Shown: positions 38,401 to 63,332, numbered from the whole stretch's first letter. The stretch is DNA of 63,332 nt, filler included, from 7 parts of 7 records of this genome joined end to end with filler, not necessarily neighbours in it; one strand, 5' to 3'. A program made the numbers and translations. Notes: generated by a model not told the origin, from the letters alone.

Positions 38401-41400
38401 AACTCCGATGCAACTACTCAACATAAGCAGCTCGATAAGGTTAAGCGACATGCCTCTCGACGAAGGAAGCAGCGAGAAGCAAACAAGGCCCAAAGAAGAC
38501 GGAAGGCAACTGAGAGCTCGTCCAATCGCAGACGAGCCCACATTGGTGGTGAGACCTTCGCATCAAGTTCCAGCGAAAGTGAAGACGAGGGTGAAGCAGC
38601 CCGCTCCACCAATGACAACAAGCTTTCCGAGATGCACCTTCAGGCCTTGGCATTTGGATACGTCCCTGTCGGTGAAACCGAATTCGTAAACTTGGAGAAG
38701 GCTAAACGAGAAAATCACGAACTACTTTTGAAGGCGAGTGAAAAGAAATCTCGTCGTGATCGCAAGAAGGAACTCGAAGCGGTGCAAATTCGGGTTGAGA
38801 AGGAAGAGCTCACACGCGATCACGATCGCCATGTCGCTCGAACCAAGGACCTCCAACACGGCTTCGCCGTCACCAATCCTGTTCTCCTTACCAACTACGA
38901 TGCAGAAGATGGAAACGCCTCCACAGACAAGCAACATCGCCCCTCATCCAGTGATGATGGTGATGGTGAATTCTCAGAGCCAGGCATCATAATGCCATCC
39001 CCTCCTACCACAAGTTTCGCGCCAATGATGATGAACCATAATGATAACGACAACGATGATATCATTGGCAAAAATCAGAAGAAAATGAGGAAGAAGCGAG
39101 CTGTGACAATTGCGAATGAGGATGAGTCAAGCTCATCTTCCAGTCACTCTTCTGATTCCCTGACAGGCGAGTCAGACACCTTCAACCCTGACCAATACCT
39201 ACAACCATCAGCTTCCACCAAGCACATTGGAAAGACCTCCCGGAAACATCGTAAATTGCAACAAAAGCGAGATGATGACGATGTAGGTGCAGCATCCGCC
39301 TCCAGTCCTGCTTCTCCTGGTCAGACAAGAAAGCAACGAAAGGATCGTCGTGGAAATAAAAAATCTAACCGTCGCGTTGTGTTCGAGGACGATGATGAGA
39401 ACATCAACGCCAGCGACGATGATGACAACCAAGACGAAAACTTCGAATTGTTAGATGAAAGCCGCCTTCTCGCAAAGCAAGCCCGAAGCGAAATGAAGTT
39501 ACTTTCACAAGCTCTTGGGTTCCTCGATGGGGCTGTTGTGGATGGAATCGACTCGGATACTGACAGTAATATCATCGGTGTCAATCAGTATGATAAAACT
39601 CGCCAGGAGCTCCAACTCACGAAGCCAATGATGTTCCTCAACGAAGAGCGTACAAGGGCCGAGAACCGACAAGATCGTCGCGAGCATGAAGATCGCTTGA
39701 AAAATATCGTGTCAGCTGAAACGATCGCGATGGAGCAGCGAAGAAAAATTGACCGAGATGTACTTCAGTTAACGAAATTCCCTAGCTCGTCTGAACATGA
39801 TGAAGAGGAGGATGAATCACGTATCGGCTACTTCGACGACGCCGGCACCTTCCATCTTCACCCACACCTACATGGCCACGCAGCCGACATTGCTCCGAGC
39901 GACAACGATGACGACAACGGTGAGGATGATGTCTGGCCAAAGAGCGATGCAGCATCATGTGGCGAAAACGAATCTGGCGACTTTTCTTCACCATCAGCAA
40001 CGACTTTGAAGAATCGTAGAAAGTCAAGAGCAACTCTCAAGAGTGGCTCCGTTGTTTCAGAATCATCAGCACAACGTAAAAGTCGCGTACAAACTGAACC
40101 ACTACCATCCAAAAACTCTCGCTTTACACGTAGTAGGAAGAATCCCATTGTGAAATCCAGCAGTGCAAAACTTGCACACTCGGCCTCACAAAAGCAGCAG
40201 CAACAGCACTCTCAACGCCGATCCACTGGTGGTCGCCATGAGGGCGAAATGGCAGCCATAGAAGACTACTTTGCTTCTGAACTTGCAACTCGAAAGCGAA
40301 CCAACGCAAACCATCGACACAAGAACAATGGTATCAAGAACGGGCAACAGTACGACGATCTGGATGCGGTTCTTGATCGCTCGCAAATCATGGACACCCT
40401 TTCACGACTCCAACTTCCACAACAGGATGTCGCCGCCCTTGGTATGTTTGATGAACTCCAAGGGAAATCTATTTTCGAGGATGATGAAGATGGTAGCAGC
40501 GCCTCCCAAAGCGAGGGTGATAAGGATGAAAACAACGACGCTCCTACTTCTAAAAATTCTAGGCGATCTCCGAAGAAGAGTGGTGGCGGAAAGCCAATTG
40601 AAAATCGGATTGGCAACAAGCGCACAGCCCTCATTGGTGGCCTCAGGGCAGCGACTGGTGGCGGTGAAAGCGAATCTGAATCAGAAGAAGAGAATCGCGA
40701 TGAGACTTTGAATTTCCTTGACGCACACTCCAAGCGCCGCGCCACAATAAAGCCAGTAAACATGGTGAGGGATAAGACTGATGATGAAGATGATGAGTCG
40801 GAAACAAATGGCGGAGCTCCAACTCTGAAAAATGCCGATGGAACCAGTAAGGTCGACGATCACAACAATGCAGCTGATAACGAAGACGATGATCCATTTG
40901 TCAGGGTTCGACTTGCTGCTGAGCGAGAAATGCGAGGTGAAGTGCCTCTCACGTCAACTGAGCTGAAAGCGTCCGCAGACCAGACACTCACAACAACCTT
41001 CAGGAAGAAGGCTGTCCTTGCAGCTGTCGTTATCTTCTTGTTACTTTACCCAACAATTATCCAAAAGTGTTTGTTGATGGTGAAATGTGACGATTTGGAT
41101 TATGGTCCGCCTTCCACCGACTACCCTGAGGGTGGTAAGCATAGCCTTCTCTTCTCTGATCGATCGATTGATTGTAGCACACTCCTCCACGACAGGTACT
41201 CCGCTGCTGCATTAGTGATCGGATTTGCATATGGTGTTGGAGTACCCCTTTCTATCACCCTCTACATCTACATCCTGAAACGTCGCCGTGGTGTTGAGCA
41301 AGCCCTCACCACATTCGCCTACTATACTGCTGGTTATCGTGTTTCGATGTGGTGGTGGGAGGGGGTCATTTTAACTCGTAAATTGGCCTTGGTTGCGATT

Positions 41401-42975
41401 TCTGTCTTCATCACAGATGACAGTCTTCGGTTGTACATCGCCATGTGGTTCTTGTCACTTGCGCTCGTAAGTCACATCCAAGCCCATCCGTTCACCAACC
41501 AAACCCTTCACAACGTCGAAACCATTTCACTGTCTACAATCGTCATCACACTCAACATTGCACTCTTGTTTGAGTTCACAGAAACAGACTCCTTCTTGTA
41601 CAATACTCTTGCTATTGTTATCGTACTGCTGAACATTTTTGCACTTGCTTGCATCTTGTTCTTCATGGCCAGAGAGCTCAAATCAACCATCAAAACCTAC
41701 ATAGACGAGCATGGCCCAAGAGCTTGGAAAATTGTGACTGCGGTTGTCTCATTCATACCAGGTGTTGGTAATTGGATTGAGAAGCGTCGTCGAAGGAACC
41801 TTCTGATTGCCAGAGAGAAGGCGGAGGAAGAAGCACGAAAGCTTAATATGGAAGATGATGCTACCAGGATGGCAAGGCTCCGAGAGGAGTACCTGAAGGA
41901 AGCTCATCCCACCATGTTGCAACGAGTTGTCAACTACTGCAAGGAAGTGTGGGATGGCGATGCAGCAACTCAGGAACGACTTCAAATTGAGCGAGAAGAA
42001 AAGTCAGCTGAAGATCGACGAACAAAACAAGAAAATGACCCACTGCATGACGCGAAGGCGCTTGTGCGCGGTCGTGGTCAAACAGAAGGTACTGTCGCTG
42101 TTGAAGTTGGTGACACTCACAATGAAGATGATTTCTACTTTGAATTTGTGAGCGAGAGCGTCACCGAAAGTGACAACCCAGACGCAGGAGGAGGAAGTGA
42201 TGACAACAACAACCATAACAAGTACCCAGCAAATGCCGAGGGGCAACTTGTTGTGAGCAATCCACTTAACCGTCTTGACCGCAGTGCATGGGAGTACTCC
42301 TCTGATGAAGATCGTGAGAGGGAAGAGGAGTTGTTTGGACCCGCAACATCCGAGCGAACCAACTACTTTAGACATCACCGCCTGCCAAAGTCTGCAGCCG
42401 TTTCTGCCCCAGATGCACTCAACAATACATCAAAGGCAGAAAATACTCAACGACGCCGTCGAAAGGTCATTCAACGAAGGAGAAGGGCTCATGCATCGAC
42501 TATTGTTGAGGAAGACCCAACGTCCACTGAAGGTCCCTCTGCCACAGCACCTTCCTCCAGTCGAGTACGAAGCTTCTGGGACATCATTATTCGCACCATC
42601 AATGGAGATGTCCGTGATCTTTGGCAAGCCCCTGAAAACACTGACGAACAATGGAGGGATGTTGTTGATGGTGACATGCGGCTCTTCAGCTTGCTCGATG
42701 ATGACGTGCGCACGCTCTACGTAGCTAATCGCGCGGATATCGAAATTCTAAATGCAGTTATTGAAGAAAAGTCAAGGAGGATTTCATCCCTATCAAACGC
42801 ACTTTCGGAGCGGCAAGATCGCCACGAAAAGATGCTTGCTATGCGGGACGCCCTTCAAGGGAGCGGAACGGCAAGAGTTCTCAGCCAAGCTGTGGAGCAA
42901 TACCTTGAACAGACTGAAAAGGAGAAGTCGGGTGAATCAAAGCGTTTTGTTGAAACAGGCGCATTCTCCAATTAA
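32473..42975 (+). CDS. Giant (>3500 aa, 5'-truncated) laminin/EGF-like repeat + IPT/TIG + Cys-rich, multi-pass membrane protein
   Basis: The frame is open from the contig edge (32473). It has many CSGHGxC..C.C..GY.G..C repeats, IPT-like YPPIADSFGGTPITLTGEGF and GGTLISIGGFGF, a juxtamembrane Cys-rich region (GWWRSS..GYVGPRC..C), TM helices with KILLNHIQI and later LYP..C/WWWEGVILTRK motifs. No introns. Confidence 0.85.
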   Translation, partial: SFCELTCPGAPSSVCSGNGRCNDFGTCDCSIGFRGADCSTVCPGGVNNICSGHGTCLSSGVCTCTADLTSGYYGGLACDVCADQWFGLQCTQQCPFSNNTMCAGHGVCQNIEVVCKCDSSALNGYWEGAACDACQYGYFGDTCQRACPGSACVPCLNNGVCDMGRTASGLCTCVDNSTGHWSPPSCADCVTGYWGGQCINDCKFVGGLICAGHGECNGGIRGDGNCTCFSDAVNGWWMGELCQSCQPGYFGSACDRKCPGLAATGLVCSGRGTCADGLFGNGTCSCQTDYRGTSCTIPCPKNSTGFVCSDRGVCIQDTTATGVCICTAGNYSGTSCQECSDNYYGTSCTACDCGEHGVCNDGITADGTCFCAYGYAGVKCDKECDGGALSPCSGHGSCSISTGGCTCDNSTGLYTGGDCSQCAVGYESRECNVSCPVNPNTGDICSNMGSCFEGLCFCNTGSCDTSCNVTGVAACDAFLCPLGYWGPSCEHSCPGMPTSICSNAGSCIEGKFGIGTCVCQRGYSGTNCERSCPGLTSPCYYNGICNEVASTCTCFAGFAGKACDIVCPTSGGVRCGGHGSCNDTSIGDGKCICDLGWTSSTCTSICPGGLTTPCGFHGICTNNNTCICDGNFGGLACERCKQGFRGVSCDSLCVHGTTVGIDCVCDQYYSGINCNIPCPGMSVGNCTDLDCLDRGSSDCEGVCVWDSLQQACFGQVSCLRGMCSGRGLCQHGANESGVCACEADFYGAACTTYCTAQNCIQTLSVSNAQCNSLGSCGCQDDETAHFDNLLSGCTDCKATWFGPTCSFKCPCNDHGGCDQVTGTCECAGDFATGFWDGDSCDSCLDGYVGELCNRLNVEITRFDTTTAFQYPTGNYFQGFLIVDSIYNISYLGTTPFACIDNNKVANKTTSVGNFGQPMLAYESDSHVFVVFSHKDTVYANVDVYSIQRNDSTCSTMALQNSYRMAFATRAASSRRMLLAATGTPQEIITVITSTDAIGPVMLLASGDLASRTFESQIPVGYIDNDNATDVAYFSLLGTFVIVGAYNNSWAAITINTPANTNIIDLTKIVPVAFCLTSTTGCSSALKVFIVDEFCLIILRFDRGIGVVRFSLLNPSAGGVSEVLIVAADISTVTVIDVALDPTEGLAFAAVHINSDPTKIVKFYYRPVTGVVTVAPTVRGLTSMDTQGFDAEVATAMYTDLAKRSLWTLISTTGAASITELALFAVASIYPPIADSFGGTPITLTGEGFALSISRCTFGTTTVEAHVVDSRTLICNASAGGDEICEGNFIEASQLDRFTANGLRLRRSGTPVPTTAVNEYGDPHAWFEGGTLISIGGFGFAVSPAISCRITDDDGLDLIFDATFISTSSVSCVMPPSLAAGSSGPNSQISTSIDRFIWSKPVSFTVIGSAFGLHVTQPEQAHVYRSADIVELIDIRVDVVDDEKHQLLYYDGNAERLIRFSMTNFTDTRANVAVDPTSTLMLVITSNTTSRGFTYFKGTALRRPVVGEAFMELTHGTWTAPLTLLIAEGEPHHLSISKPPSTLIDNKIPKLEQQPTVVVVDISGNVIKNLLDKSLIVSTVVATYFEGTHDINATVVANVGGEFEFSDIAMRGYHGQTYRITFTAQGVDGVVSAELTVGPCATTEYGVAGALDCVTCPSSAHCNGSFTFDLDQGWWRSSPLSYNLYYCGKPYGNEPACEDGTCTSGYVGPRCTQCDSGFGLSGDTCAKCLDTTSNIFIVVVVLAVAIVVLSVVVYTALRSTKRSPLPVLIKILLNHIQISSQLGGIVGTLPGLVLSMVGWQQSVGSADPSALPAFDCLFAPSFYETFLFTASLPWIILLAAVVALRFLTKREIRLEIEDVEKQEDEKRQMGPFESLEDYNARRRELGLVDDEGALLSGNHPNNTVFARQGARSTAATMLNRRNRLRKVHVQLERLQRAAAVLSTLQLSQERSDAILWLRKMQHKLLQELGTLEETFGFNSDATTQHKQLDKVKRHASRRRKQREANKAQRRRKATESSSNRRRAHIGGETFASSSSESEDEGEAARSTNDNKLSEMHLQALAFGYVPVGETEFVNLEKAKRENHELLLKASEKKSRRDRKKELEAVQIRVEKEELTRDHDRHVARTKDLQHGFAVTNPVLLTNYDAEDGNASTDKQHRPSSSDDGDGEFSEPGIIMPSPPTTSFAPMMMNHNDNDNDDIIGKNQKKMRKKRAVTIANEDESSSSSSHSSDSLTGESDTFNPDQYLQPSASTKHIGKTSRKHRKLQQKRDDDDVGAASASSPASPGQTRKQRKDRRGNKKSNRRVVFEDDDENINASDDDDNQDENFELLDESRLLAKQARSEMKLLSQALGFLDGAVVDGIDSDTDSNIIGVNQYDKTRQELQLTKPMMFLNEERTRAENRQDRREHEDRLKNIVSAETIAMEQRRKIDRDVLQLTKFPSSSEHDEEEDESRIGYFDDAGTFHLHPHLHGHAADIAPSDNDDDNGEDDVWPKSDAASCGENESGDFSSPSATTLKNRRKSRATLKSGSVVSESSAQRKSRVQTEPLPSKNSRFTRSRKNPIVKSSSAKLAHSASQKQQQQHSQRRSTGGRHEGEMAAIEDYFASELATRKRTNANHRHKNNGIKNGQQYDDLDAVLDRSQIMDTLSRLQLPQQDVAALGMFDELQGKSIFEDDEDGSSASQSEGDKDENNDAPTSKNSRRSPKKSGGGKPIENRIGNKRTALIGGLRAATGGGESESESEEENRDETLNFLDAHSKRRATIKPVNMVRDKTDDEDDESETNGGAPTLKNADGTSKVDDHNNAADNEDDDPFVRVRLAAEREMRGEVPLTSTELKASADQTLTTTFRKKAVLAAVVIFLLLYPTIIQKCLLMVKCDDLDYGPPSTDYPEGGKHSLLFSDRSIDCSTLLHDRYSAAALVIGFAYGVGVPLSITLYIYILKRRRGVEQALTTFAYYTAGYRVSMWWWEGVILTRKLALVAISVFITDDSLRLYIAMWFLSLALVSHIQAHPFTNQTLHNVETISLSTIVITLNIALLFEFTETDSFLYNTLAIVIVLLNIFALACILFFMARELKSTIKTYIDEHGPRAWKIVTAVVSFIPGVGNWIEKRRRRNLLIAREKAEEEARKLNMEDDATRMARLREEYLKEAHPTMLQRVVNYCKEVWDGDAATQERLQIEREEKSAEDRRTKQENDPLHDAKALVRGRGQTEGTVAVEVGDTHNEDDFYFEFVSESVTESDNPDAGGGSDDNNNHNKYPANAEGQLVVSNPLNRLDRSAWEYSSDEDREREEELFGPATSERTNYFRHHRLPKSAAVSAPDALNNTSKAENTQRRRRKVIQRRRRAHASTIVEEDPTSTEGPSATAPSSSRVRSFWDIIIRTINGDVRDLWQAPENTDEQWRDVVDGDMRLFSLLDDDVRTLYVANRADIEILNAVIEEKSRRISSLSNALSERQDRHEKMLAMRDALQGSGTARVLSQAVEQYLEQTEKEKSGESKRFVETGAFSN

Positions 42976-43122: not shown

Positions 43123-43222
43123 NNNNNNNNNNNNNNNNNNNNNNNNNNNNNNNNNNNNNNNNNNNNTTAATTAATTAANNNNNNNNNNNNNNNNNNNNNN
43201 NNNNNNNNNNNNNNNNNNNNNN
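43123..43222. other. Artificial contig-joining spacer
   Basis: N run with TTAATTAATTAA. Confidence 0.98.
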
Positions 43223-43441: not shown

Positions 43442-44555
43442 ATAGAAAAAAATATAGAGAGAGTCGTACATCGAACACTATGGTTCTTTTTGATGCTCCT
43501 CTCATTTTTTTTTGGTTAAAAGTCTCCTTCTCGAATTCATTTATTCGTAACAAAAGCACTTTTAAAACACCATATCGCCCCAGGTACCCTACACGTACCA
43601 CCTCATCAGGCAACACACATACCACCACAAACACACACACACACACGCTCTCTACCATTATTTTTACTATTTTAGCACCCACGCACACACACACAAACAC
43701 ATTTTACAAACAAATATAATCATATCAAAAAGAGGTACGCAACAAGGAGAAAATAGGGGAAAATAGCGCACATCATGTCGACTAGTTTTTATTTTCATAT
43801 CACCGTTTTCATCATCACTCTGATGAGTGAGCGCATTAACACTGCGATGATGAAGAGAAAGAAGAAATAGAGAAAAATGTCCGAAAATGGATTGGCACGA
43901 AACCAATCTCCATATTGGACCAGCATTCAACATTCCCATTTATTTGTTGGGGTTGGTGGGCTAAAAGGAAAGTAGACCGTGATGGGGTATTGCCTCCCCC
44001 TCCTTAAAATGAAAGAGAGTAGGCCCCTGATAGCTGTATTTGAGGATATATATATACGATGTTGTTGTATGCATTATTTTTCATCCATCATTCTCACAAT
44101 TTATCACTTTCACTACAAACCTACAGCTCTCTAACAACTCTCTTCTTCCCTGCGAATCCGTGATAATATATATTTATTATATTCAAATAATAAATGATGT
44201 ATGGATAGTGACATGGACTTGCTTCGAAAGAACTAGTGTCTGTGTTGCGCATCGTTCCTATTGTGTTGCCACTTGTCCACTGTGCAAAATATATTTACAC
44301 GATTTTCTATCTTCTTTCTTCACACATTTTTCTTCGTTTCAAGTGTATAGGACTTCAAAGTAGTTTTAGATCTCACACAAAACACCGCACTCGCCATCAA
44401 GCACCCACACGACTTTAAAAGACAAGAAGAAGTATTTCGTAACACGTAAGAACGTCTTCACATCAACACTCACACGTTCGAAAACATACACCAGGCCCGT
44501 GCGTATTTCTTCTTCTACAATTATCGACTTCCATATCATATTCACACATACTACT

Positions 44556-47500
44556 ATGTCCTTCTCGTTCTCTCAGTCGAACACGAGTGATATCGTCAGG
44601 AGGGATACGAACATCAATCACGGCACCGATCGGGGGCTAGATGCCCGGGCTGCTACTACTACTGCTTATCCCTCCACCACTATCAACCATAGTAGTGGTT
44701 GTAAAGGGGGGGCGTCGAGCGATCGTGTTACCGTCCGTATCGCCGTATTGTTCGCAATCGGCTGTATCGTCATCATCGGAGCTTTTACTGCCGTCACTGC
44801 CTACTCCGCCTTCACCTTCTCATCCACGATTACCAAGGGGGTCAAAGACAATTTAGAGCTGTCTCTACGTGCCGCAATGCAGCTGGTTACGACCCCGATT
44901 GACGCGTCGAATGCCTATATAGACGCCCTCCGAGACAAAATCGAGACCAATCCCGATATGTATGCCCTGGACGATGCTAATCCAACCTCTCTCGTCAATA
45001 CACCCTCCATACACACCTTCTTTATCGATGCCATGTTGACGGCGCTACACAGGAAGGAGATGGCATACATATTCCAAGTACGGAAATCTTCCAGATATAC
45101 TAGGAGCCCATCGGGTGCTCCCATCGACATGGTAGCAGTGGCATCTCGTTACACAAACCAGATTCTCTTTTTGGCGAATGATAGCTTCACAACGGTGGAG
45201 GTTCCCGACAACAGTGTTCTCTCTAACATCACTGGACAGCCCGAATCAAGTTTTTCCTACGACACCTCTGGCGATCCGTATGTCACTGCAACATTCGCAA
45301 CAGCCGGGAAACAATGGGTCACATCCGCATTCGTGAACCCAGATCCCACCGTCCCAGTCTCGGTCCTCATGACAATTTATGCCGAGATTCGTGGATTTTC
45401 AGGCGGAGGGTTCGGGATTGGAATCGATCACAACATGATAGCATTCCAAGAATTTATGCTTCAGGCAACTGTGCCATTTTCCATTGGTAGGCCCGATCCT
45501 CAGAAAGTAGTCTCACTAGGCGCCCATACCACCCTCTACGACCTCTCAGCAAACGTACTCATAACGTCCAGCATGACGACTGTAAAACTGTTCAGCGATA
45601 CGAATGAATTATGGCCGGCAGGTAATAGTCCCAATGCCGACCTCAATGCAGCCTACGCGGAGGCTATTGCTGTTTGTGGTGGAATTGATAATACGTTTTG
45701 TCAAAACGATCCCAGCATTCGATCATCGGGGGAACTACTCATCAGCGCACTTCGTAATCGTGACCTCACCACTAAGCTCGACCACCTACTCGTCTCCGTC
45801 GTCCCCCGAAGCTACTTCTTTGCCACCACAGATACAACCTTAGGGGTATCGATTGGCATTGGGGTGTTCTGTTGTGTGTTGATTGTTGCAGGGTGCATTC
45901 TATTGTTACGATCCATCACCCCCGCCCTGCACGCCCTCCAGGAGAACATGCTACTGGCCTCTGAGCTACAAAACCACCGTGTTGTCCACAGAGAGTCACG
46001 CCTGACGGATATCGCGAATCTGAGTGCTGTATTCGATCAAATGAATCAGCGGCTCCTATCATTTGTGCCAGAGGCTGTGCTTCTTGGACATGGTTCCACG
46101 AGTGAGGGGGGAGTAGGGGGCGGTGAGGATGATGAGAGCGAGGGTGGGGATGATGGGATGGTTTATGATGGTAATACTAAGTCTACCCGTCGTACCACAA
46201 ACAGCTCCACACTTATGTCCTCCATTCACGACGCCCATACTGAACTTACCGATGCAAGTGGGGCATCGACGGAAAAGATTGTAAAGCTGTTTACGATGAA
46301 TGAGAAACGTATTTCAGTTCTTTCCGTCAATTTGGTAGGATTCCATGCTCTCGTGTCATCATCAAACGGCCAAAATAACTCATCAAATCCCCGAAAAATC
46401 CATGACATTTCCACCAAGTTATTGTCTATTGTTGTAGGTGCAGCTCATCTTGATCGTGGTGTTTTAGATAGCTTCCACGGGGACCATTTCATGCTCACCT
46501 TCAATGCCTCCCGTGCTGTTGCAGGCGCCCTCGCAGCAGCTGTCCGAGCTGCTAACCTCATTGTCGATGAAGTGAGGGCGGATGCCCGCTTCAGGGGTTG
46601 TCTTGGTATTGCCTGTGGTGCTGCTGTGGGGAGGGCCCGCATAGGTACCCTGGGAATCGAGGGTCATCGCCGTCTCAGTGTGGTGGGGGGCGTCTACAGC
46701 TCGGCTATACGGATGCAGCATGTTAGTGGACAGTTCATCCAACGGGTCTCCAACATGACTAATACTACCCGACGAGGAGGGGTGGTTGGTGACCAACCAG
46801 TAGCTAGCGGATGTGCGATTGAAGAATCCGCTCTCAAGGACGTTGGGAACTGTGGAATGTACATGCAACTCATTGGTCGTGGTGCATTCCCCAACGACCA
46901 CCACCACTACTACAACTGCACAAAGACCTACACTGCCGCGCAACAACCCCAACAACCCCAACAACCTCATCATCAGCAGCAGCATTCGGGTGTTGGAAAG
47001 TATGTCTACCTAGCCCATTACAACCCCCGGGATGACCGGATTGGGAATACCCAAGCAGCAGGGGATGCTGAGTGGTTGTACGAGCTGAATGCCATAGAGG
47101 CGGGAGACCCCTATCGTGCTCCGAATGAAGCCCTCATGGCGTTAATGAATGGAGATCGGGATCAATGCGGCCGGTTGATACCGATACGAAGTCCTCCACA
47201 ATTACTGAACGGATCTGTCACCGAAAACACCAACCACAACATCAACATCACTAATACCGGTAATCATCATGTCCTCAGGAGGACCCCACGGGCGCACTCT
47301 CGGGGAGGGGGGGTCGTTGAAGCCGTAATGCCCTTCAGTCGCTCCACCTCTACTAGCACTATCGACGATGCAATCAACTCAAGTACATCTGGTGGTGGAG
47401 GTGGTGATACTTATCGCCGCCAAAGTGGCATGGGTAGCAATACCTGTGGTGGTGCTGTGGAGGGTGATGCTACTAGCTTCACACTAATTCCCACCATGAT

Positions 47501-47663
47501 GCCCGTTCAGAACCGTACCACATCATGTTGGCACATGGTGGAGAATATATACGAGGCGAATGGGCGGTTGGTTGAGAACAATGGGGTTGTTGGTGATGGT
47601 GGGGAAAATGCTACATACAACAACACAGCTTCTGGATGTGAACTGTGGACGTTTGCTGTCTAG
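44556..47663 (+). CDS. Receptor-type class III nucleotide cyclase-like protein (2 TM, extracellular sensor, HAMP-like linker, degenerate cyclase domain)
   Basis: Two TM helices flank an extracellular region, followed by SRLTDIANLSAVFDQM..LLSFVP and cyclase-like RISVLSVNLVGFH, GVLDSFHGDHFMLTFN and GTLG..VVGGVYSSAIRMQ. Intronless. Confidence 0.75.
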   Translation: MSFSFSQSNTSDIVRRDTNINHGTDRGLDARAATTTAYPSTTINHSSGCKGGASSDRVTVRIAVLFAIGCIVIIGAFTAVTAYSAFTFSSTITKGVKDNLELSLRAAMQLVTTPIDASNAYIDALRDKIETNPDMYALDDANPTSLVNTPSIHTFFIDAMLTALHRKEMAYIFQVRKSSRYTRSPSGAPIDMVAVASRYTNQILFLANDSFTTVEVPDNSVLSNITGQPESSFSYDTSGDPYVTATFATAGKQWVTSAFVNPDPTVPVSVLMTIYAEIRGFSGGGFGIGIDHNMIAFQEFMLQATVPFSIGRPDPQKVVSLGAHTTLYDLSANVLITSSMTTVKLFSDTNELWPAGNSPNADLNAAYAEAIAVCGGIDNTFCQNDPSIRSSGELLISALRNRDLTTKLDHLLVSVVPRSYFFATTDTTLGVSIGIGVFCCVLIVAGCILLLRSITPALHALQENMLLASELQNHRVVHRESRLTDIANLSAVFDQMNQRLLSFVPEAVLLGHGSTSEGGVGGGEDDESEGGDDGMVYDGNTKSTRRTTNSSTLMSSIHDAHTELTDASGASTEKIVKLFTMNEKRISVLSVNLVGFHALVSSSNGQNNSSNPRKIHDISTKLLSIVVGAAHLDRGVLDSFHGDHFMLTFNASRAVAGALAAAVRAANLIVDEVRADARFRGCLGIACGAAVGRARIGTLGIEGHRRLSVVGGVYSSAIRMQHVSGQFIQRVSNMTNTTRRGGVVGDQPVASGCAIEESALKDVGNCGMYMQLIGRGAFPNDHHHYYNCTKTYTAAQQPQQPQQPHHQQQHSGVGKYVYLAHYNPRDDRIGNTQAAGDAEWLYELNAIEAGDPYRAPNEALMALMNGDRDQCGRLIPIRSPPQLLNGSVTENTNHNINITNTGNHHVLRRTPRAHSRGGGVVEAVMPFSRSTSTSTIDDAINSSTSGGGGGDTYRRQSGMGSNTCGGAVEGDATSFTLIPTMMPVQNRTTSCWHMVENIYEANGRLVENNGVVGDGGENATYNNTASGCELWTFAV

Positions 47664-49804: not shown

Positions 49805-51033
49805 ATGTCGCTACGAAGAGTTCATATCCTACGTACCGGTGGTGGTGGGCTACTACTACTCCCTCCTGTACATGACCTGCATCATACACTGGGGCATCAC
49901 CAGGTCAGGACTATTTCATCAACTTCATCGTCTCCAAAAACCAAACCTAGACATCAACAAACTGTTGCTCCCTCAACATCGTCATCGTCGTCTGCGTGTC
50001 CACTATCTCGTCGAGAGGCACCACTACCCCGTCAACGCCGCAATGGCGGACCCCTACCCAAAACACCACCAACACCACCATCCTCATCTCCAAAACACTC
50101 ATCGTCACCAGTACCAATACCATCAGCTTCTACAGGGCCTACTACCACGACACCATCATCATCAGAAACAGAAGTAGCATTGATGCCGCATACCAAGGAG
50201 GATGTGTTAGAGCTCACCGACAGGCACAATAAGCGTACATCTACCCTAGTGGCAACTATGAGGCTTGGGGATACTAAACTGCGAACACGGGCCTCCACAC
50301 TACTACTCAAATCGACTGATGAGCTGTGTGAAATGATGGACGCACTGTGTGGTGGAGCAAACACTAGTAGTAATAATAGTACTACCACTACTACTTCTTC
50401 CTTTGTGAAGCTCGAAGAGCTGTCTACACCGCTAAGTGAAGCCCAAGCCCGCCTGCAGGCAATCCTACACCTCGCTGTGGTCCGACACCCCCTGCCATCC
50501 CCAGTAGATGCCGCTCATGAGGGCAATGCCCTGTTCCTCCGAATTGGATCACTGTCTCGTATCCAACGCCAATACATATCTGGTGGTGGTAATACTGGAA
50601 ACGTTGGGGGTGAGTCTTGGGAGCGTGGTCTTGGATATTTGTCCTTACTTGCCCAGCACCGACCCACAACACTATCCACCGCACCTGATGCCGTCGTCGT
50701 GGAGCTGATAGCTGCACTGGAGGCCCGCCACAAACAACAACAAGCATCATCTCCTCCAGCAACGGACCCCCAGGATGAGTCAGCCAATGGTGTTAGTAGC
50801 AGTTGTGGTAATGGTGTTGGCGAGGCTGCGGTGTGGATGAGAGCGCTCTCTCTTGTCCATCATCTGGGTCGTGTTGGTGCCGAGCCCCCAGCCGCAGTCG
50901 CACAATGGGTGTATACCGTCGCAGGGAAGACGTCAGGCCAAGTTGGGTGTGCGGTACGACAGATTAATAACATACCCGTACGACCATCATCACCATCATC
51001 CTCTCCACATCCGCCTCCCCCTTCTTACCCTGT
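49805..51033 (+). CDS. Hypothetical protein, possibly mitochondrial (3'-truncated)
   Basis: Open to the contig end. N-terminus MSLRRVHILR resembles a short mitochondrial presequence; S/P/T-rich then helical region. Confidence 0.55.
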
Positions 51034-51133
51034 NNNNNNNNNNNNNNNNNNNNNNNNNNNNNNNNNNNNNNNNNNNNTTAATTAATTAANNNNNNNNNNN
51101 NNNNNNNNNNNNNNNNNNNNNNNNNNNNNNNNN
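51034..51133. other. Artificial contig-joining spacer
   Basis: N run with TTAATTAATTAA. Confidence 0.98.
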
Positions 51134-52036: not shown

Positions 52037-53534
52037 TCATGGAGAATCCTCGATCTTGATGTCAACTTGTGCACTCAACCGCTTCAAGTTTGACACTGCT
52101 TCATCAGCCGAAGACCCCCGCGCACACATCCAACCCAATGCGTAAAATCCCTTTGGTGGGACCAACACGGTGTCACCAACACTCCAGTACTCCATATGGT
52201 CTACGTATGCTGGGTCACCAACGACAGCAGGAGGAAATTTCTGTTCAATGATTGTACCCCCCTGATTTGGGCGGAAGTTAACCGATGCAATATAGCAGGG
52301 GACAACTGTCCTAGCTCGCGGTTGCTGCTCTGCAGATACAATGACGGGGAGGCCGCATGATACTCTCACATACTGTTCTGCAAGGTTCAATCCAAATGCA
52401 GAGAGATTTAGCCTGTAAGTCTCTGCTGCTCCCATGCGCAAGTTAACTTCGATGGGGTATGCTACACCACTGCTGCTTAACTTCGCTTCAAAGTGCATGC
52501 AGCAGTTGACCTTCCCGGAAGATGTCTTTCTGATCGCATCCAAGAAAGACTCCACCAATTGAAGTAGCTTCTGCTGAGACCTTTCAGATAGCCCACACGG
52601 GGCCAAACCTCCCTAAAATTCCATCAGTGAAAGGCGTTACTCAAATACGATGTAAAGCATACCTCTTCACAAAAGAAAGGTGGCTTGGTCGGAAAGTTCA
52701 GGCTTATACCCGCAAACGCAAGATGGGTATCCTTGACAATACAATCGATGTCCACCTCGTCTCCATCAATATACTCTTCCACAACTAAATGCACGGCCAC
52801 ACCGATGCTTCGCCAATGATTTATATCTCTGCTAGTGTCCAATACCCCAAACGTCGCTTTCGCGGCTTCACACAGACTTTCAAACGAATCACAAGTTCGC
52901 ACCAACAGACTTCCGGCTCCAGGTGATGGTTTGAGCACCACTGGGTACTTCAAGCCAGCCTCCTCTACCCTTTTCAGGTCATCGGTTGACCACAAGGGGA
53001 TGCTTTTAGGTGCCGGGATGTTGTTGGAAGCACACCAAGATCGAAATGAGCTCTTCACGTTCACCTTCTTAATTATCTGATGGGCGGGATGTCAACTCGA
53101 AAACTCTTGCCGCAACTCAGTCTAACCAACCTCCGGGCAAGCAGGGCAAATTATTTGCCGGCCCCACCTTTCTCCAAGAACGGAACAAGGATAAACACCA
53201 TACTCATCGAATGTAAGAACTCCATCTAAGTCTACCGGGGACATATTCCAGCTTTTGAGATGACTTTCAATGCTCTCTTGCAAAAGATCAACGTTCCACT
53301 ACGCAAGGACGAGATCAATAAGGATCTTAAGCAAGGGAAATGTTTTCGTACCGTATCGACGAAGATCCATTTCCATATTGCTGGATCTGCATAGTTCTTG
53401 ACAGGATTCACCATGATTATCTTAACACCAAGTGAGTGCAAATGCAGATATGCAGCCAGTCTACTATTGGAACTGGTGCGAATGAATAAGACCGTTTTCC
53501 CGGACAGTTCGCTTAACCTTTCGGCTTCTCCCAT
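52037..53534 (-). CDS. ATP-grasp ligase (carnosine synthase / L-amino-acid ligase-like), multi-exon
   Basis: DGVLTFDEY, K..FR..C....IPAP, YPVVLKPSPGAGS, VVEEYIDGDEVDID, CMHFEAK and PIEVNLRMG. The start position is uncertain. Confidence 0.8.
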
Positions 53535-53842
53535 AGCAGCGGACACTTACCTTTGCACCTCTTGGATCTACAAATATATGAAGCGTGGGGGGCTGGGGAG
53601 TTGGGTTCAGTTTGGGTTGGGTTGTGTTGGATTAGTGATTGCGATTGCGGTTAGGCCAGTCCGGCGGCCAGTGCAATCAAGCTGAAAGGAAGCAACGCCG
53701 CCGGCGCCGGAACGCAGCGAGGTCACGGTACTCGGGGCCGCCAATGAATTGACCGCCAAGTTGAGTAGCAAAAAAATTGAAATAGTTTGCTTAATCAAAA
53801 ATAGTTTATTTAATCAGAGTGCCGACTTCACCGGGGTGATGA

Positions 53843-56637
53843 TTACAAGTTGTGGATCTCCAGTGGTTCGTCCAGGGGATCTGCAGGTGTGTAGCCTAGC
53901 ACTTTCGCAAAGAAATGAAACTGGCCCTCCAGCGTACGCTTCTGGTTCTTAGCCATTCGGAAGCCATGCTGCTCACCAGGGTACAGCTCGATGGCTGTAG
54001 CTACACCCTTATCCTTAAGGGCCTCAAACATCTTTGTTGCCTGGTTGGGCGGAACAATCTTGTCCTCCAATCCTTGGAAGAGAATAATGGGCACGGTGAT
54101 CTTATCGATGTGATTGATAGGAGACCTGTCGTAGTAAACGTCCTTCATCTCCGGGTATGGTCCAATAAGCGAATCGAGGTACCTCGACTCAAACTAATGT
54201 AGTATAGTGATTAGAACAATTCACACCGTGGAACAACCGCCGCACCTTGTGTGTCTCCTGCGCCAGGAGCTCCATGTCTGCAACACCAAAGAGGCTTGCT
54301 CCCGCCTTGAAAACATCGCGGAAAGCAATGGCTGCTAGGGTAGTATAACCACCAGCGCTGCCACCATCGATCGTGAGCCTTTGATCATCCGCCTAGAGAC
54401 AACGAAATGAGATGATTTTCCACACAACTGACTCCACTCAATCTCATACCTTGCCGGACTCCGCGAGAAACTTGGCACAGTTGCAGCAATCTTCTATATC
54501 GACAACACCCCACTGCCCCCTAAAATAATACCATAAGCATGAATATATTTCCGTGGAGTACAGAGAGCCTACTTCAAGCGATCGCGATATTCACGGCCAT
54601 ATCCCGTAGATCCGCCATAATTGACGTCAGCGATGGCCACTCCCCTGGATGTCCAGTATTGGTACTGGGCGTTGAACGAAGAGCTGCAGGATCCCGTGGG
54701 CCCTCCGTGTATCTACAGTAAAATGTCACGAGCAATGCCCTGCGATGAAGCTGAACACTCTACCTTTACAAGAAGGGGAGGCTTTTCACCATCTACGGGC
54801 CTGTAGTCATCATTCTTTGGTGGGTAGTACATAGCATATCCCTCCTTGCCATTGGTGGTGGGAAATGAGATGTGCGTGGGAATGGAAAGATATTTCGGGT
54901 CAAGAGGCTCGCTTGACCTGGCAATGATGTTGATATTACCAGTATTAGGTTCGAATTCAAATACTGTGTTTGTCAGCGAAGGTGAGCCTCCGGCCATGAG
55001 GATCTACAATGACTATGAGCACAACTGAGTATCGTTCCTCAGGCACATACCTTATTATTGCCAATCATTGACATGCCGACAAAGGAGGTATAACTCAGTT
55101 CATCATACACATGTGTTTTGGCAGCAGGCTGTCCATCACCACCAAGTGTGACCTTCATAAGGCGGTGGAAGCCACCATCGATGAAACGTGTATAGAAGAC
55201 CGTTCCCTACGACACAACGCCATTCAACAGTAGACTCCACGAAAATACGGCAAAATACCTCTGCCTCGGATGAAAACATGAAGCTGCTACCTCCCAGTAC
55301 CCAAGCAGGCTCGGCAAATTCATTTTTCTTCTCCAGCAAGCACGTATGAGTGCCATTACCCTATTGAAGTAATGAGATAATATCATATCATTGTACTTGA
55401 CAACGCATCATACCTCATATCGATATAGATTCCACCAACCGCTGGCTGCATCGCTGACATAGTACAATTTGTTGTCATGCTATTGCATATCTTGTCACGT
55501 CCAATATCACAACAAGCACAACTTCTAGCACTCACGGGTCCCCACACAGGTGACGTGATGGATTCATGCGCCCCTTCTCCGGCAATGCAGGATGTCTCCG
55601 TAACGGACAAGCTGTGGGACGCGTTTAGGCGTGGTCCATCAATTCAATAAATGCGCACTTCTCTGAAATCGCGGCAATATGGAGGGTGGTATCATCCCAG
55701 GGCATGTTAGGATGGTTCCACTGAACCCAAGCGATAGACTTTCCATCTGGGCAGAATCAGACAATCCCCCTATCTACCAGGCATATACCCTGACCTTTGC
55801 TCATGCGTGGACCGGCGACAAAGTCTGCACCGGAAGCCAACACTATCTCCTCTGCCTCTGTTGCATCATGCATTAGTAAAGCCATCGATAAGGGCAATCA
55901 TGGATGGGGCAGCATGCCTTTTTGGGGATCTGTCCTGTCGAGTTTCAGATACACAACCTCATTGTTTACACTCTTGTCGTCAGTGTGCGATTCGCGAACG
56001 CAAAGGATCCCATGCCTTGTCTCATCGTAGACACCGTCGGCATACCGCACCTTCGAGTCTCCCAGGTCCTTAGTGACTGTTGAAACAGAAATGTTAAGTA
56101 TGTTCCGTCGTATCAAGGGAACAACGTGCCTGGGTGAATGGACCCGTCATGGGCAGACACGCGGTACAAACGCTGGTCTGCAAAGTTGCTAAAATACTAA
56201 AATTGCAGTTAGAAGTGGTCTCAGCCAAGGCTGCAATACCCACGTAGACCCCATCCTCCTCTCCGGAGATAAGTGCCTTGCCACCGTATTCGTGGACGCG
56301 AGTTCGGATGTTCATCTTGGTGTCGACGGGGACTAGGTCCTTCACCGCGCCAGACTTGTCACGGCGAACCTGTTAGCAGTTAGGATACCCCTCTTCTCTC
56401 AAATACACAGCATGGTACCAATGCCACCCTTCCTTGCTCTTGAGGCCGAGCCTCAAGCCAAACCACGGCACCAGATTCCTTTTCTGCATAGACACCTCCA
56501 TATCTGATAGACTGTTGCATCGTTAGAGGACTTCGTCAGGAGGTCCTTAACTTAATCTAAATATTCCAACGTACACTTCCAGTGGCAAGCTCAGCAGTAA
56601 CAGGAGACTTCCACGTCCCGTATGGTGCAGTAGACAT
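53843..56637 (-). CDS. S9-family serine peptidase (prolyl oligopeptidase / acylaminoacyl-peptidase-like), many short introns
   Basis: [14 protein letters not shown] start, [50 protein letters not shown], catalytic [17 protein letters not shown] and GEQHGFR. Confidence 0.9.
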
Positions 56638-57398: not shown

Positions 57399-57498
57399 NN
57401 NNNNNNNNNNNNNNNNNNNNNNNNNNNNNNNNNNNNNNNNNNTTAATTAATTAANNNNNNNNNNNNNNNNNNNNNNNNNNNNNNNNNNNNNNNNNNNN
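57399..57498. other. Artificial contig-joining spacer
   Basis: N run with TTAATTAATTAA. Confidence 0.98.
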
Positions 57499-58146
57499 GC
57501 AGGCACGGCGGATGAGATTCCCAGCAGAGTGTTGCTGAGGGAAGCAGTGTGGTCACCGCATGCCGGACGCGGCGAGGCGATGACAAAAAAAAAAGAGAGC
57601 ACTTGCTCTTCAATAGTCAGTACCGGTCATAGTGCCTCACTGACCCACCGTGACTGAGTAAACCAACACCCGCCCATTGGCAATGCCAGCCGGCGGGTGC
57701 CCGACTACAGGGCCGGCCGGCAAGCGCGGCACTGGGCGAGATTCGGACGAATTTCGATCACGAGTGGGCTACGGATTCGATGGGCTGTCGGGCGGTGCCG
57801 GCCGGTGGGTGGGACGGTGTGGGGCAATCCGAGAATGATCCGTGCCGTGGGCGCGACGACGTTCTTGTCCAGGCAATCCTGATTGCCGTTCGGCGAGGGC
57901 CCGGGGCGTGCAAGGTCGGCCTGATCCGTTCACGAAGGTCAACAGTGGCTTCTGTTCACGGCGTGGTCACATTTTCTTGTGCAAAATCACGAAGTCTCAA
58001 CGAGACGGGCATATATACCCGACGAGCACGGATTGTCACGGATTAAGACTGTTAGTGCGATGCTGATACTCACGATACTCATACTCGGCAGCACCGGGCA
58101 GCAAGGCTGGCCCACGACCAGCCGCCCCCCCAGGCCCCCCGGCGCC

Positions 58147-61100
58147 ATGGCTGCCTACCGGACCGGCCCACCTGTGGCTGCCTCATCGCCGCTGCGGAGG
58201 CCAGCGGCGGCAGCGACGATACAGCCTGGCTTGGCCGACGTGTGGCTCAACTCTGTCGTGATGGGCTGGCCTTGTTGGCAGCGGTTCTGGCCCAGCGGAC
58301 TTTGCCCTGCGCCATACGCGACCAACTGTGCGCACCGAGGCCATGACCAAGATCCCCCCAACCTTTGTGAGCATTTCAATTTCTTGTTCGAATGTTGACT
58401 GATCCACTGTGGATATAGATGAAGGCACCGTCGATAAGCATTGCAGCTTGATTGTAGCCTCTCGCACCGGGTTCATTGGCTCTGCGCACCGAGTCCATGA
58501 CCAAGATCTCCCCAATTCAGGTAATATTTTCATTTTCTTGTCAGAGTGTTTTCACTGAAACTGCCATAGCGGGTGGAACGGTGTTGCTGCTAGATTGCGG
58601 ATCAGGTCCTAATGGAAGTGATTGTCAATTCATTGCACTGGCTGCTTCACTTGCATGAAGACTACGCCAAGATTTCAATCACTTGCAACTGCGTGCGATT
58701 GCGGCCTCATATTTGGAAGACACCAGGCACTGCAGTAGCAGTCTCCTCGATCTCGACGCACGATCATTTCAGGTTGATGGGGACCGACGGCTTCATGAGA
58801 TCAAGGCGGGCCAAGGGATGGGCTCATATGGGACCCTTCTTGCACTATCGAATGCTCTTCACGTGAACATAGCTGTCCTCACCATAGGGTGCCATGGCCC
58901 TTGCGGCATCACGTGGGTCGGTGATGATCACAGAAACGGCTTACACACTGTGATTCTTGCACTTCATCAATCACACTACTATGAGATCATCAATCCTCAT
59001 ATTCTTCCCCGTGAGCTATTCCGTTCTCCATCGCAGTTTAGATCTGAGGAGGATCTGTACTCTGCATTCCACGGAGGTGGGAGTGGTGGACCAACGAAGG
59101 TGACCTTGGAAGATCTTGGGGACAACCCTGTCTCTAGCGACGACGAGGACGTCGAAGACGATGGAGAACAAGGTTACAATGTTGTCGAAGATGATGATCG
59201 GGATGGCGATGATGACCATGAGAAGGTCGATGGGCAGCAGGATACCATAGAAGAAGAGGATGTGGCACAGGATCTTCCGGGAAACAAGATTGACGCTGAG
59301 GTGGACGAAGCTTTGGAACAGTTGCAAGATACCTTGCAGGAGTGGAATGATGGACAAGTGGAGTTTGCACGCCAGTACCGAAAGGGTCAATATGGATCTC
59401 ACGAGCCAAGGAAAGTTGACCCCACTCGTTTCCCTGGAAAAGTGAAGATCGCCATTGATACCTCGGGGAGATTTGCAAAGAAGGCAATGGCAGCGATAAC
59501 CATTGACGTCCCTATCACCCGCAGTGATGCAGATCCTAATAAGAGTACGACGGAGACGATGGTATCCTTGGATTCAATTTTTGGTAACAGCAGGAGTTGC
59601 CCCATGGAAAGAGACTTATTGAACAAGGGAGGTGCTGTGGGCCCGTGGAACTCAGTGTTCGCCAGTATCCATGGTAAAAGCATTCTAATGACCCCGCAAC
59701 AACGCGCTGAAGCCTTGATTGCGGGCTTGGACATCCGCCGTGATGAGCTCCTATCATTTGGGCCTAAAGACCCTGTCGATCGGCGTTTCGGCATATATAC
59801 TGTGCCAGATAACCCACCAGGTGGCGGGGTGTCGGCTGTTCCCTCAGTCGATGCGAAAGGAGCAGATGGCACTGAGATGACTGGTTTGGCAACGCATGTG
59901 AAAGGAGCGATTCAAAAGGTTGCAAGTGCAAGGGCTCAAGCCAAGAAATCACATGAGGAGCATAAGAACAAGTGGGGACTGACGGGAAAGGTCGCCAACG
60001 GCAGCATTGCTGGGGTATTCTGTTCTGCATCATTCATTCCGTTGCCTATGGCGATTCTCTTTTTGACGAAGATGAGCTCACTAGGATCCAAGAAAGATAA
60101 CGTTTCCTATTTATCGTCAACAGTGACACAGGAGCAGAGGAACTTTGCAAAGGGCATGATTAGTCTTCTCACTGTGCACGAGGATATCACAGAGATTGTA
60201 CAACGGGGGGGCCACATGGGTTTTGTCTCGGACTCAGACTTGGACAAGAGGACCATCACTAATCTAAAGGCTATGATCACGAGGCTTAAGAACCTGAAGA
60301 GCGAGCACTTCGACAAGATTACTGCGGGAGAGAAGGCCTTTCAAGTTGCTAGGTCTATCCAGGGCATGAGCCAGGCAATGCTGAATGATTTTGTATCGAA
60401 GGCACCCGACCGAATTCGGGCCAAAGACCGGCTCTATGACTCGTCAACGAGCACCGGTTTAGTGCGTCTCAGCAAGGACGCTGAGGAATTTGTTGGCATG
60501 AGAGCCACGGATCCAGGAGGTACCGTCGTTGTATGCGACCGGAACAAGTTGCTGTATTTGATGATCATTCGGCATATTCTTGAGGGCGGGGCCACCTTTG
60601 ATGAGTGGATGAAGGAACCCTACATTGAGGTGCTGCTATCGATTGATGGAAAATACCTACAGAATGGGTATCATTATACCACCGGGACAGTAACGATGAC
60701 AAGAGGTCCCAGTGTGAACGCCTACTCTGTAAAACACAACGTTCCAGTCGCCATAGCTGCCGACGAAGACAGCAAGTACACGATTCAGCGCATTGTGAAT
60801 GACCTGAAGCTGGATGACCATGATGTGTGTGGATTGGAAGCAGATGGCAATCAGGTGCCTTTACCGGACAACGCTGGCGACATGACGGTTCCTGATCGTG
60901 AGGTGTTCGGTGCGTGCAACAAGAAGCGTTCAATAGTGGGCATCCGGGCCTCCAGGACACGCTCCCACATTGACTTTGGAAGTGGTTTGACGAAGTTTGT
61001 GCACGAAATTATCGTTCTCGACCTGAAGGCAAGATGGGGAGCAGGACAGGGAGACTCTACCACATGTTTCTGCTGCGGAGATACTCAGGATGAGTGGGCC

Positions 61101-63332
61101 GAGCCCAACCCTACGCCAATGCCGTTTCGGATACTTGGACGACGTTTCAACAAATTCAATCCACCGCATTCCGCGGGAACAGACGAATGTCGACTCTGCC
61201 GAAAGCGCCTAATTCAAGATGCTGAACAAGTCGCTCTTTTGCACAATCTTTTGATTGAGACGGATGATGTCTCCGATGAACAGCTTAAGAAGGCATTTGC
61301 GGATGTAGAGGAAGCTTGTGCCAAGGCCCAGGCGCCCATTGTATGCACCTGCTGTGTAGATGATACACATGACAACTCTGGCGTGCCCCTTGAACTCTCC
61401 GTAGATGGAGTTGCTGTTTGTTGCAATGTCGACTGCGCCCGCCATAATATGAAGAATAATTTGGAGAACTCGATTGTGTTGCTTTGCCAGAATGGGAAGC
61501 GAATTCAGGAACTTTGTTCTAGCTTGCCCGAATTCGCGGGCTTCCTTGGTGAAATTAAGAAGCACATCAAGGAAATACCTGGATTGGAAAGCGTTGTTTT
61601 TGGCGAATCTAAAATGGATGCCAAGCGAATTAATGGCCATGTAGTATCCAGCGAGGAATGTAAGGAGTTCATTCAAACTATCAGTTCCCTTCATGGAGAC
61701 CGCGCAAGGGAATTCTTTGCTCGGAACAAGGCCATTGTTGTTGTTGATGACCGGACTGGAAACATTCTTCCTGAGATCACAACGCTGGCACAGAAGACGG
61801 CAAAAGAGAGACAGATAACGAAGGCACTCTACCCCAATGGCGTCCCGCGACTTTGGCTTCCGAGAGAGCTTGACATGATAGCTGCCTATGATGAAAAAAC
61901 GAAGAAGGAGTGGGGCTCCAAGCCCCATGGAGAAGAATACGGAAACGGCGTCGAAGATGAGTATGTGCCTCCAGATGATGGTAGTGAGGAACTGGAAATG
62001 TATGGCGGTGTCGAATTTTCCAAGGGGTACAAGCCAACTGCGAAGCCAACTGCGACGACCGGCCGCGATACTGCTCCGGCTATGGGCCCTCGGATGACCA
62101 CTTTTCTTCGGAGGAGAGGCTGCACCAAGCGAAGCGAGTACTACACCACAAAGAACAAGCACGTGTTGGGAAGGCATCCTCTGCGGACAGTTAGATGGAA
62201 AGCGGCGTTTGAGCCTCTTCTCGAGATGTTGGAAGAAAAGCGGCAGCACATGATTACGTATATTGAGAACTCAAAGGAGAAGGTGGATCTGGGACACCGT
62301 CTTGAGAACGCTCGTCAGAAGAAGAAAGGCCACGGTAGTATCAAGGTCTTGCCCAACGATATTCCAGAGAAGTTGGAGAGTTTGATCAAGCACTTTAGGG
62401 CGCTCGATTATATTTTCAACGCAATGCTTGGAGTTGAGGACAGTCTTGTTGCGGACGAATATCGGGCCCGCTGGTTCCCCAAGAGCCTACCAGATTCGCC
62501 GTTGGCGGACCAAATGACCATCGATATTCTATCCCTTGACAGGGAGCCAATCACTACTCGCATTTTGACTGAAGAGGAAGACATTCTTCTCCGCAAAGCC
62601 CTTCCTCGTCATTATGAGGTTCTACCTCGGAATTCGGACGGTCGTGTTGTCGTTCCATGGTATTACACAGTGCCTGAACCTACCGGGAAGGACACTATAG
62701 AGAAACGGAAGGCCCAGAGACTTCAAAGGAGATTAGATCGCAAACTCTTGTCGCCGGAGCGGAAACGAGAGCTCATCGGGGTCATGCGAATTGTGTGTAA
62801 GGCTAACCGCCTCGACCAGAAGGTAGACGAATACATTGCCACCAAGGTTGACATTCTGGGCTTAAACTATTCAGAGCAAACCCGGGGCATGTACTTTAAG
62901 TCGTTTATCAAGAGCTACTTGCACCAGTTGAGGCATTCTTGGGAGCGTTTAGTATTACACGGTAGTCAGAAACGATATACCGCTGATGTTGAGGAATCGA
63001 GTCATAAGCGGCTAGCGCAAATGCATCGAGGGGTTTGCAGTGCTCACACTGCTCGCTACGATGCCCATGAGCGGTACAAAGGTGGAAATGCTTGGCAGAT
63101 GCTGAGTAGGGCCGTCACTCGGGAGTATTCAGAGGTTTTATTTTTGATGCATAAGCACGGGTTCCTCGGAGATACACTGGAAGAGTTCATGAACTCTAAC
63201 TCTGGAACGATTGGTACCGCTCCATTACCGGTTGTCCCTTCCACACTGGACGGAGTATTTTTCAACATGACCACATCAGACGCCGCGGTAAGCGATCAGC
63301 CCGATGAGACTGCGCCTGCAACTCCCGTTTCC
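58147..63332 (+). mobile_element. OTU-domain-fused RAG1/Transib/Chapaev-like DDE transposase gene (exons ~58147-58366, 58419-58520, 58570->63332; in-frame TGA at 58656; 3'-truncated)
   Basis: Manual translation: 1558 stop-free codons from 58659 to the window end. Motifs: LLSIDGK (D at 60645), PVAIAADEDS, IIVLDLKARW...CFCC (D at 61020), VDCARH (61431-61445), SYLHQLRH (62913-62936) and DVEESSHK (E at 62994). The upstream part of the same frame gives GSDCQFIALA...HLQLRAIAASYL...GSYGTLLALSNALHVNIAV...ILALHQSHYY (OTU-like). Two GT-AG introns keep the frame. Confidence 0.72.
58330..58558 (+). repeat. Imperfect ~73-75-nt direct repeat spanning an exon end plus intron (copies 58330-58402 and 58484-58558)
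   Basis: gcgcaccgag(g/t)ccatgaccaagatc..cccaa...gt(g/a)a...ttttc..tttcttgt...actga occurs twice. Confidence 0.85.

Follow-up and report, generated by a model that had tools for sequence, protein, structure and literature searches.

The DNA analysed here, referred to below as the window, is a stretch of 63,332 nucleotides (nt) in which seven contigs are glued end to end, and its last contig (57499-63332) carries a giant open reading frame (ORF) on the plus strand that is stop-free from 58659 to the window end. This ORF is a genuine protein-coding gene whose translation, hereafter P0001, is an orphan to which none of 15 billion proteins is related, and yet it combines the motif order of RAG1 with RAG1-like features in a protein language model. 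We tentatively propose, at somewhat less than even confidence, that the ORF encodes a RAG1-like DDE transposase that has diverged deeply, begins with an OTU-like region and contains a giant insertion domain. More specifically, and a shade more tentatively still, P0001 could be the first-seen member of a deep RAG1/Transib (CMC-Transib) lineage that bears an N-terminal OTU-type deubiquitinase and a core split by a zinc-rich insertion of about 650 amino acids (aa), and that is invisible to profile searches.

The coding character of the frame is clear. A preliminary description of this DNA had called the frame open from 58659 to the end of the window, and translation upholds this over 1558 codons with zero stops, whereas each of the remaining five frames of 58659-63332 holds 44-104 stops. 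At the local base composition, a frame of 1558 codons would stay stop-free with a chance of 1.4e-35, and the same interval has the base preferences of coding sequence, with G at 0.36 in the first codon position and A at 0.34 in the second. The ORF continues past the end of the window, so that its 3' end is missing. A 434-nt contig from a public run (X1, kind not stated), in which 0.06 of the sampled words of the ORF were present, is 100% identical to positions 61410-61812, and both of its ends carry 15-16 nt that we take to be the SMART template-switch/PCR oligo. These ends suggest that the contig comes from a cDNA-type library, and give a weak hint that the ORF is transcribed; RNA sequencing runs were absent from the runs listed as matching the ORF's sampled words.

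The first line of evidence for a RAG1-like protein is the order of its motifs. The preliminary description had quoted a series of motifs with their order and coordinates, and string searches of P0001 located all of them where it had placed them:

Residues 656-664, plus strand: IEVLLSIDG
Residues 696-705, plus strand: PVAIAADEDS
Residues 786-793, plus strand: VLDLKARW
Residues 803-806, plus strand: CFCC
Residues 921-929, plus strand: CCNVDCARH
Residues 1420-1426, plus strand: YLHQLRH
Residues 1444-1450, plus strand: VEESSHK

Read from N- to C-terminus, these correspond to D663 at the end of a hydrophobic strand, ADEDS followed by a stretch that looks helical, the hydrophobic IIVLD788, SxxCxxC, CxxH, HxxxH and E-E-S-x-x-K. 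RAG1, RAGL and Transib share the same order (strand-D, ADE[DS][SD]-helix, strand-D, SxxCxxC, CxxH, HxxxH, and E-S-x-x-K about 20 residues on). In P0001, CxxH lies at residues 926-929 and HxxxH at 1422-1426, with E-E-S-x-x-K following 19-20 residues further, for which the RAG1 counterpart is presumably the step from H937/H942 to E962-S963. SxxCxxC (S800-x2-C803-x2-C806) begins 12 residues after D788. SxxCxxC after the second D is conserved motif 7 of Kapitonov and Jurka (2005), and Martin (2023) names E962 and S963 of RAG1. Nucleotide positions 60645, 61020 and 62994 fall on D663, D788 and E1446; the claim that all three catalytic residues are intact draws on motif resemblance, and they are treated here as candidate catalytic residues. 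The candidate zinc ligands would be C803/C806 and H1422/H1426. A regular expression for the ordered layout matched 0 of 20,000 shuffles of the sequence, a count that yields no p-value because the pattern was written after the sequence had been seen, and from which it follows only that composition does not by itself generate the layout; SxxCxxC alone arises in 552 of 20,000 shuffles.

The second line of evidence comes from protein language-model neighbours in the ESM Atlas, which are independent of the motif reading and, as leads only, point toward RAG1. With residues 600-1558 as the query, at least 8 of the 30 best matches (a figure summed over rows giving a count) were RAG1 clusters, at values of 0.90-0.92, and the RAG1 clusters found carry PF26025, PF26100, PF26101 or PF26104 (pre-RNase H, RNase H, ZnC2 and ZnH2). 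An arthropod cluster (0.90) has PF26100 RAG1_RNase_H on 16% of its members, 8 of the 10 best named matches share a family or clan, and the top match is an unnamed 778-aa eukaryotic cluster. When residues 1160-1558 were submitted alone, rank 3 (0.89) went to a RAG1 fragment cluster of 144 aa in which 84% of the members carry PF26104 RAG1_ZnH2, ZnH2 being the sub-domain that the H..H..E motif of this part would predict. The core and the C-terminal part of P0001 each lie near RAG1 clusters in these features.

The arrangement of these elements along the protein, downstream of the N-terminal region treated below, is as follows:

59109..59363, plus strand: acidic linker, with 25 D/E between residues 151 and 200 and another 12 between 201 and 250
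60624..61082, plus strand: candidate RNase H-like core, N-terminal half, with D663, ADEDS at 701-705, D788 and S800/C803/C806
61065..61517, plus strand: Cys/His cluster; residues 803-953 include 14 Cys
61881..62135, plus strand: low-complexity stretch, probably disordered (residues 1075-1159)
62136..63197, plus strand: C-terminal region, mostly helical, with H1422 (62922), H1426 (62934) and E1446/E1447 (62994) in VEESSHK

A long insertion between the second D and the E is a further feature common to P0001 and RAG1, RAGL and Transib, and the RAG1, Hermes, Tn5 and P element transposases are described as carrying large insertion domains that separate beta5 from alpha4. RAG1-like elements have been reported from the protist Aureococcus (Tao 2022), and Transib from bacteria (Tao 2022; Martin 2023).

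Several results weigh against a RAG1/Transib assignment, foremost among them the sequence searches. The preliminary description had held that a lack of profile or structural similarity to DDE transposases would refute its reading, and no profile similarity was found. Pfam was queried at E<=10 with whole P0001, with three pieces of about 350 aa and with eight motif-centred pieces of 71-352 aa, and none of the four RAG1 models nor any transposase model matched the whole protein or any of the 11 pieces. At the same threshold, a phmmer search of PDB sequences returned no RAG1, RAG1L or HzTransib chain, and whole P0001 had no match of any relevant kind in PHROGs, NCBIfam, Pfam or PDB sequences. A HMMER search of residues 600-1558 against 1.84 billion representatives yielded two matches at E<=0.001, both judged spurious: P0003, a bacterial adhesin-like protein, was matched via its 84-aa repeat, and P0004 (E 2.6e-4), a low-complexity metagenome protein, aligns only to low-complexity residues 1056-1165, which take in the stretch listed above. 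No true relative of residues 600-1558 was therefore present in that set. Word-indexed protein searches with the whole protein, with residues 1-620 and with the N-terminal 599 aa returned nothing, and the core found no relative in IMG/VR viral contigs or metagenome contigs. The four metagenome loci that hold relatives of P0004 (L001-L004) have no tblastn similarity to the ORF; these contigs code for a conserved C-terminal stretch (ETNAFDQTQMDKLTL...DPQDEF.WTD; L001 1243-2088, plus strand) after a low-complexity N-terminus, which is unrelated to the ORF. A match of residues ~1415-1465 to TnpV (PF14198; E 0.019-0.032) lies under the cutoff, is of an unrelated kind and was set aside as noise.

The spacing of the candidate catalytic residues weighs in the same direction. 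The distance from D788 to E1446 is 658 aa, whereas the second D and the E are 206-214 aa apart in Transib and 253 aa apart in RAG1 according to Kapitonov and Jurka (2005). P0001 also differs from RAG1, RAGL and Transib in having no pairwise similarity to them and in its OTU-like N-terminus and extra Cys clusters, and, at 1612 residues or more, from Transib with its ~700. The language-model values, too, fall short of their marks, with recognition at 1887 against 2300 and shared features at 109-160 against 170, marks that were not measured on protein parts. AlphaFold2 in single-sequence mode gave a 1159-aa model with a predicted local distance difference test (pLDDT) score of 34.8 and a 399-aa C-terminal model at 42.4, both unusable because there are no homologues for an alignment; a Foldseek comparison of these low-pLDDT models with PDB, which yielded 0 matches at E<=0.001 and only noise at E>0.3, has no bearing on the fold. 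At the DNA level, the heptamer CACTGTG/CACAGTG, which resembles that of a recombination signal sequence, occurs four times in the ORF's contig; for that reason the upstream occurrence at 58405 was rejected as evidence of such a signal. The contig sequence at hand, which comprises 998 nt of 5' flank and ends before the 3' end of the gene, yielded no convincing inverted repeat. Since neither profile similarity nor a D-E spacing of the known range was found, the ORF is not to be filed as a member of Transib or RAG1, and the claim that survives is that its product may work like a RAG1/Transib enzyme.

A further point against a RAG1-type protein concerns the cysteines themselves, and leads to a different account of the gene. 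The CFCCGDTQDEW stretch, with H837-x6-C844 downstream, has a sub-threshold resemblance to the BIR zinc finger, with which it shares CFCCG-x5-W followed by H-x6-C. The match to BIR (PF00653) has an E value of 0.025 and covers only 20 profile positions (32-51), at 15.5 bits against a cutoff of 22.9, and matches to cIAP/XIAP BIR chains in PDB have E values of 0.8-1.3 on GDSTTCFCCGDTQDEW. BIR domains are spaced C-x2-C-x16-H-x6-C, whereas P0001 reads C-x2-C-x30-H-x6-C, with a 14-residue insertion between W and H. If CFCC..W..H-x6-C is nonetheless read as a local BIR-like finger, this would remove the C2H2 zinc site of RAG1 type. On these grounds P0001 could instead be a non-mobile host protein of the ubiquitin system, in which an OTU-type deubiquitinase, zinc fingers (one of them BIR-like) and a helical scaffold evolved fast in a poorly sampled protist lineage and the likeness to RAG1 is coincidental. 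We consider this account doubtful. The lack of a transposase profile match and the cDNA-type contig that covers part of the ORF are in keeping with it, as is the absence of a second copy from the other 57 kb of the window (best tblastn E 0.025 over 26 aa), and BIR provides the only sub-threshold domain match in the core. Set against it are the weakness of the BIR match and its Cys-to-His distance of 30 rather than 16 residues, as well as the ESM neighbours, which are RAG1 and unnamed eukaryotic clusters and not deubiquitinase or IAP families.

The N-terminal region bears on this alternative as well as on the transposase proposal, and comprises the following features:

57499..58496, no strand: 5' flank, GC 0.52-0.77 per 100 nt, without a long ORF, 998 nt upstream of the ATG
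58480..58550, plus strand: copy 2 of a direct repeat, spanning ATG 58497
58497..58655, plus strand: in-frame upstream part, 53 codons from ATG to TGA, carrying GSDCQFIAL
58584..58991, plus strand: OTU-like region, recognised by eye from a Cys box, a GSYGTLLALSNAL stretch and a ILALHQSHYYEII His box, and interrupted by the TGA
58656..58658, plus strand: single in-frame TGA that splits the upstream part from the main frame

The frame of the ORF is also open over 58458-58655, with a candidate start at ATG 58497. We take GSDCQFIAL to resemble the Cys box of OTU proteases, and the middle and His-box patterns likewise to resemble those of the family; by eye, the Cys-box-like and His-box-like strings are about 117 residues apart. 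As a lead only, the residues flanking the TGA thus look like one OTU-type cysteine protease domain. These motifs would suit a host deubiquitinase, which is, however, poorly served by the absence of any Pfam (PF02338) or PDB OTU match at E<=10 for the N-terminal region. They would also suit a mobile element, as OTU domains ride on DNA transposons, namely Ginger1 and Helitrons. P0001 would share with these the fusion of an OTU-type cysteine protease to a mobile-element protein, insofar as its proposed mobility holds. In Ginger1, however, the OTU domain is C-terminal and matches PF02338, whereas here the OTU-like stretch is N-terminal and has no profile match; and the Ginger1 transposase is a Gypsy-integrase-like DDE enzyme, whereas P0001 has no Pfam match to an integrase or Rep/helicase domain.

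Across the 1612 codons counted from ATG 58497, TGA occurs once and TAA and TAG not at all. We read the TGA at 58656-58658 as probably a stop because, on the other contigs (which are possibly another organism's), 4 of the 9 long ORFs end in TGA, and because it occurs only once in the 1612 codons here; it could be a nonsense mutation, a sequencing error or a site of read-through. TGA as a sense codon was, for the same two reasons, dropped as the default. One nonsense codon in an otherwise intact frame of 1612 codons fits a young dead transposon copy, and would be unexpected in an essential host gene. The start region itself has been duplicated: a 71-nt direct repeat of 77% identity occupies 58326-58396 and 58480-58550, and since its second copy spans ATG 58497, the start-codon region recurs 154 nt upstream. 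A short ORF (MTKIPPTF...) opens in the upstream copy and ends after 19 codons, and the downstream copy holds a 24-nt GT...AG stretch (58521-58544), which, were it spliced out, would count as an in-frame mini-intron. Scans for promoters and terminators, Rfam families and tRNAs returned nothing relevant.

The extreme N-terminal position of the OTU-like motif also recalls RNA viruses, as in nairovirus-like L proteins an OTU domain comes first and the polymerase lies beyond residue 2000. The ORF could then be the front of an RNA-virus replicase of this kind that entered the assembly via cDNA, an explanation that we regard as highly improbable. Such an origin would accommodate an ORF that leaves its contig after 1612 codons, and a public-run contig, the only one found, whose ends look like SMART-type cDNA oligos (an identity that we presume). 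The 998 nt of GC-rich non-coding sequence before the ATG and the duplicated start region are, by contrast, unlike the end of a viral segment; no polymerase, helicase or endonuclease profile matched, no relative appeared among viral contigs, and the neighbouring contigs are genomic and contain introns.

Those contigs are separated by six N44-TTAATTAATTAA-N44 linkers, and GC content (guanine plus cytosine) runs from 0.72 to 0.48 among the seven. Adjacency across the linkers is meaningless, and the contigs may derive from more than one organism.

9776-9875, 22047-22146, 32373-32472, 43123-43222, 51034-51133 and 57399-57498: linkers

The other contigs hold eukaryotic genes (ankyrin repeats, DEAD-box helicase, DnaJ-thioredoxin, WD40). 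On the contig of 72% GC, a 1590-aa ORF at 3358-8130 (minus strand) is an unusual fusion of oxidoreductase NAD-binding, cytochrome b5 and adenylate-kinase-like domains, adjoined by IDO at 8085-9692 (minus strand). A 3455-aa ORF at 32608-42975 (plus strand) fills nearly the whole of its contig; its teneurin-type EGF and IPT/TIG domains would suit a large protein of surface or adhesion type. Two ORFs without a Pfam family, of 1054 aa at 44499-47663 and of 426 aa at 49805-51085 (both plus strand, the latter entering a linker), could be additional orphans from the same organism. Finally, 52037-55003 (minus strand) carries a string of short, exon-like ORFs with pieces of an ATP-grasp/L-amino-acid ligase and an S9 peptidase, apparently split by introns. 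These split pieces indicate that the assembly has introns, whereas the 1612-codon ORF has none.

A long, intronless ORF, where contig 6 has split genes, would be at home in a third kind of explanation, namely that P0001 belongs to another mobile element or to an integrated virus (a new DDE or nuclease superfamily, or a giant-virus or Polinton-like protein) with an OTU-like domain and no specific kinship to RAG1/Transib. Its orphan status among 15 billion proteins and the nonsense codon are in line with this, and several superfamilies, not Transib alone, combine a [C/D]xxH motif with a long insertion ahead of the E. The [C/D](2)H motif is named for P/THAP9, and various mobile elements that are unrelated to one another carry OTU domains. 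We nevertheless consider this explanation unlikely, as PHROGs, Pfam and NCBIfam gave no match, IMG/VR viral contigs hold no relative, and the named ESM neighbours are RAG1 clusters and not another transposase family.

Returning to the RAG1-like transposase that we favour, we infer its fold, catalytic residues, zinc site and mobility from the features above, and these would fit together as follows. P0001 would mobilise a lineage-specific DNA transposon of the cut-and-paste type in a unicellular eukaryote, and would follow the RAG1/Transib plan at a divergence beyond the reach of profile detection. Its N-terminus would form an OTU-like cysteine protease (deubiquitinase) domain, followed by the acidic linker and by some 400 residues of unassigned function that may bind DNA. 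An RNase H-like catalytic core would come next, with D663 and D788 at the ends of beta-strands, and with E1446 on a helix that is brought back to them after an unusually large insertion (~650 aa) with extra Cys/His clusters. A zinc ion bound by C803/C806 and H1422/H1426 would tie the insertion to the core, as in RAG1. The enzyme would nick the element ends by two-metal-ion catalysis, leave a hairpin on the flanking DNA and then integrate the element. Given the TGA inside the OTU-like region, this copy may have been recently disabled, or its translation may begin at Met54 (58818) and leave out the protease Cys box.

Should the RAG1-like reading prove wrong, the ORF would still encode an apparently transcribed orphan of 1600 residues, and would merit structure prediction as soon as genomes of sister species are available. 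If it is right, the family of V(D)J recombination would have protist branches too diverged to be picked up by hidden Markov model (HMM) surveys, such as the one that found Aureococcus RAGL and bacterial Transib (Tao 2022). The fusion to a protease and a three-fold larger insertion domain would bear on how far the RNase H core tolerates insertions, and would widen the known structural range of the family ancestral to V(D)J recombination.

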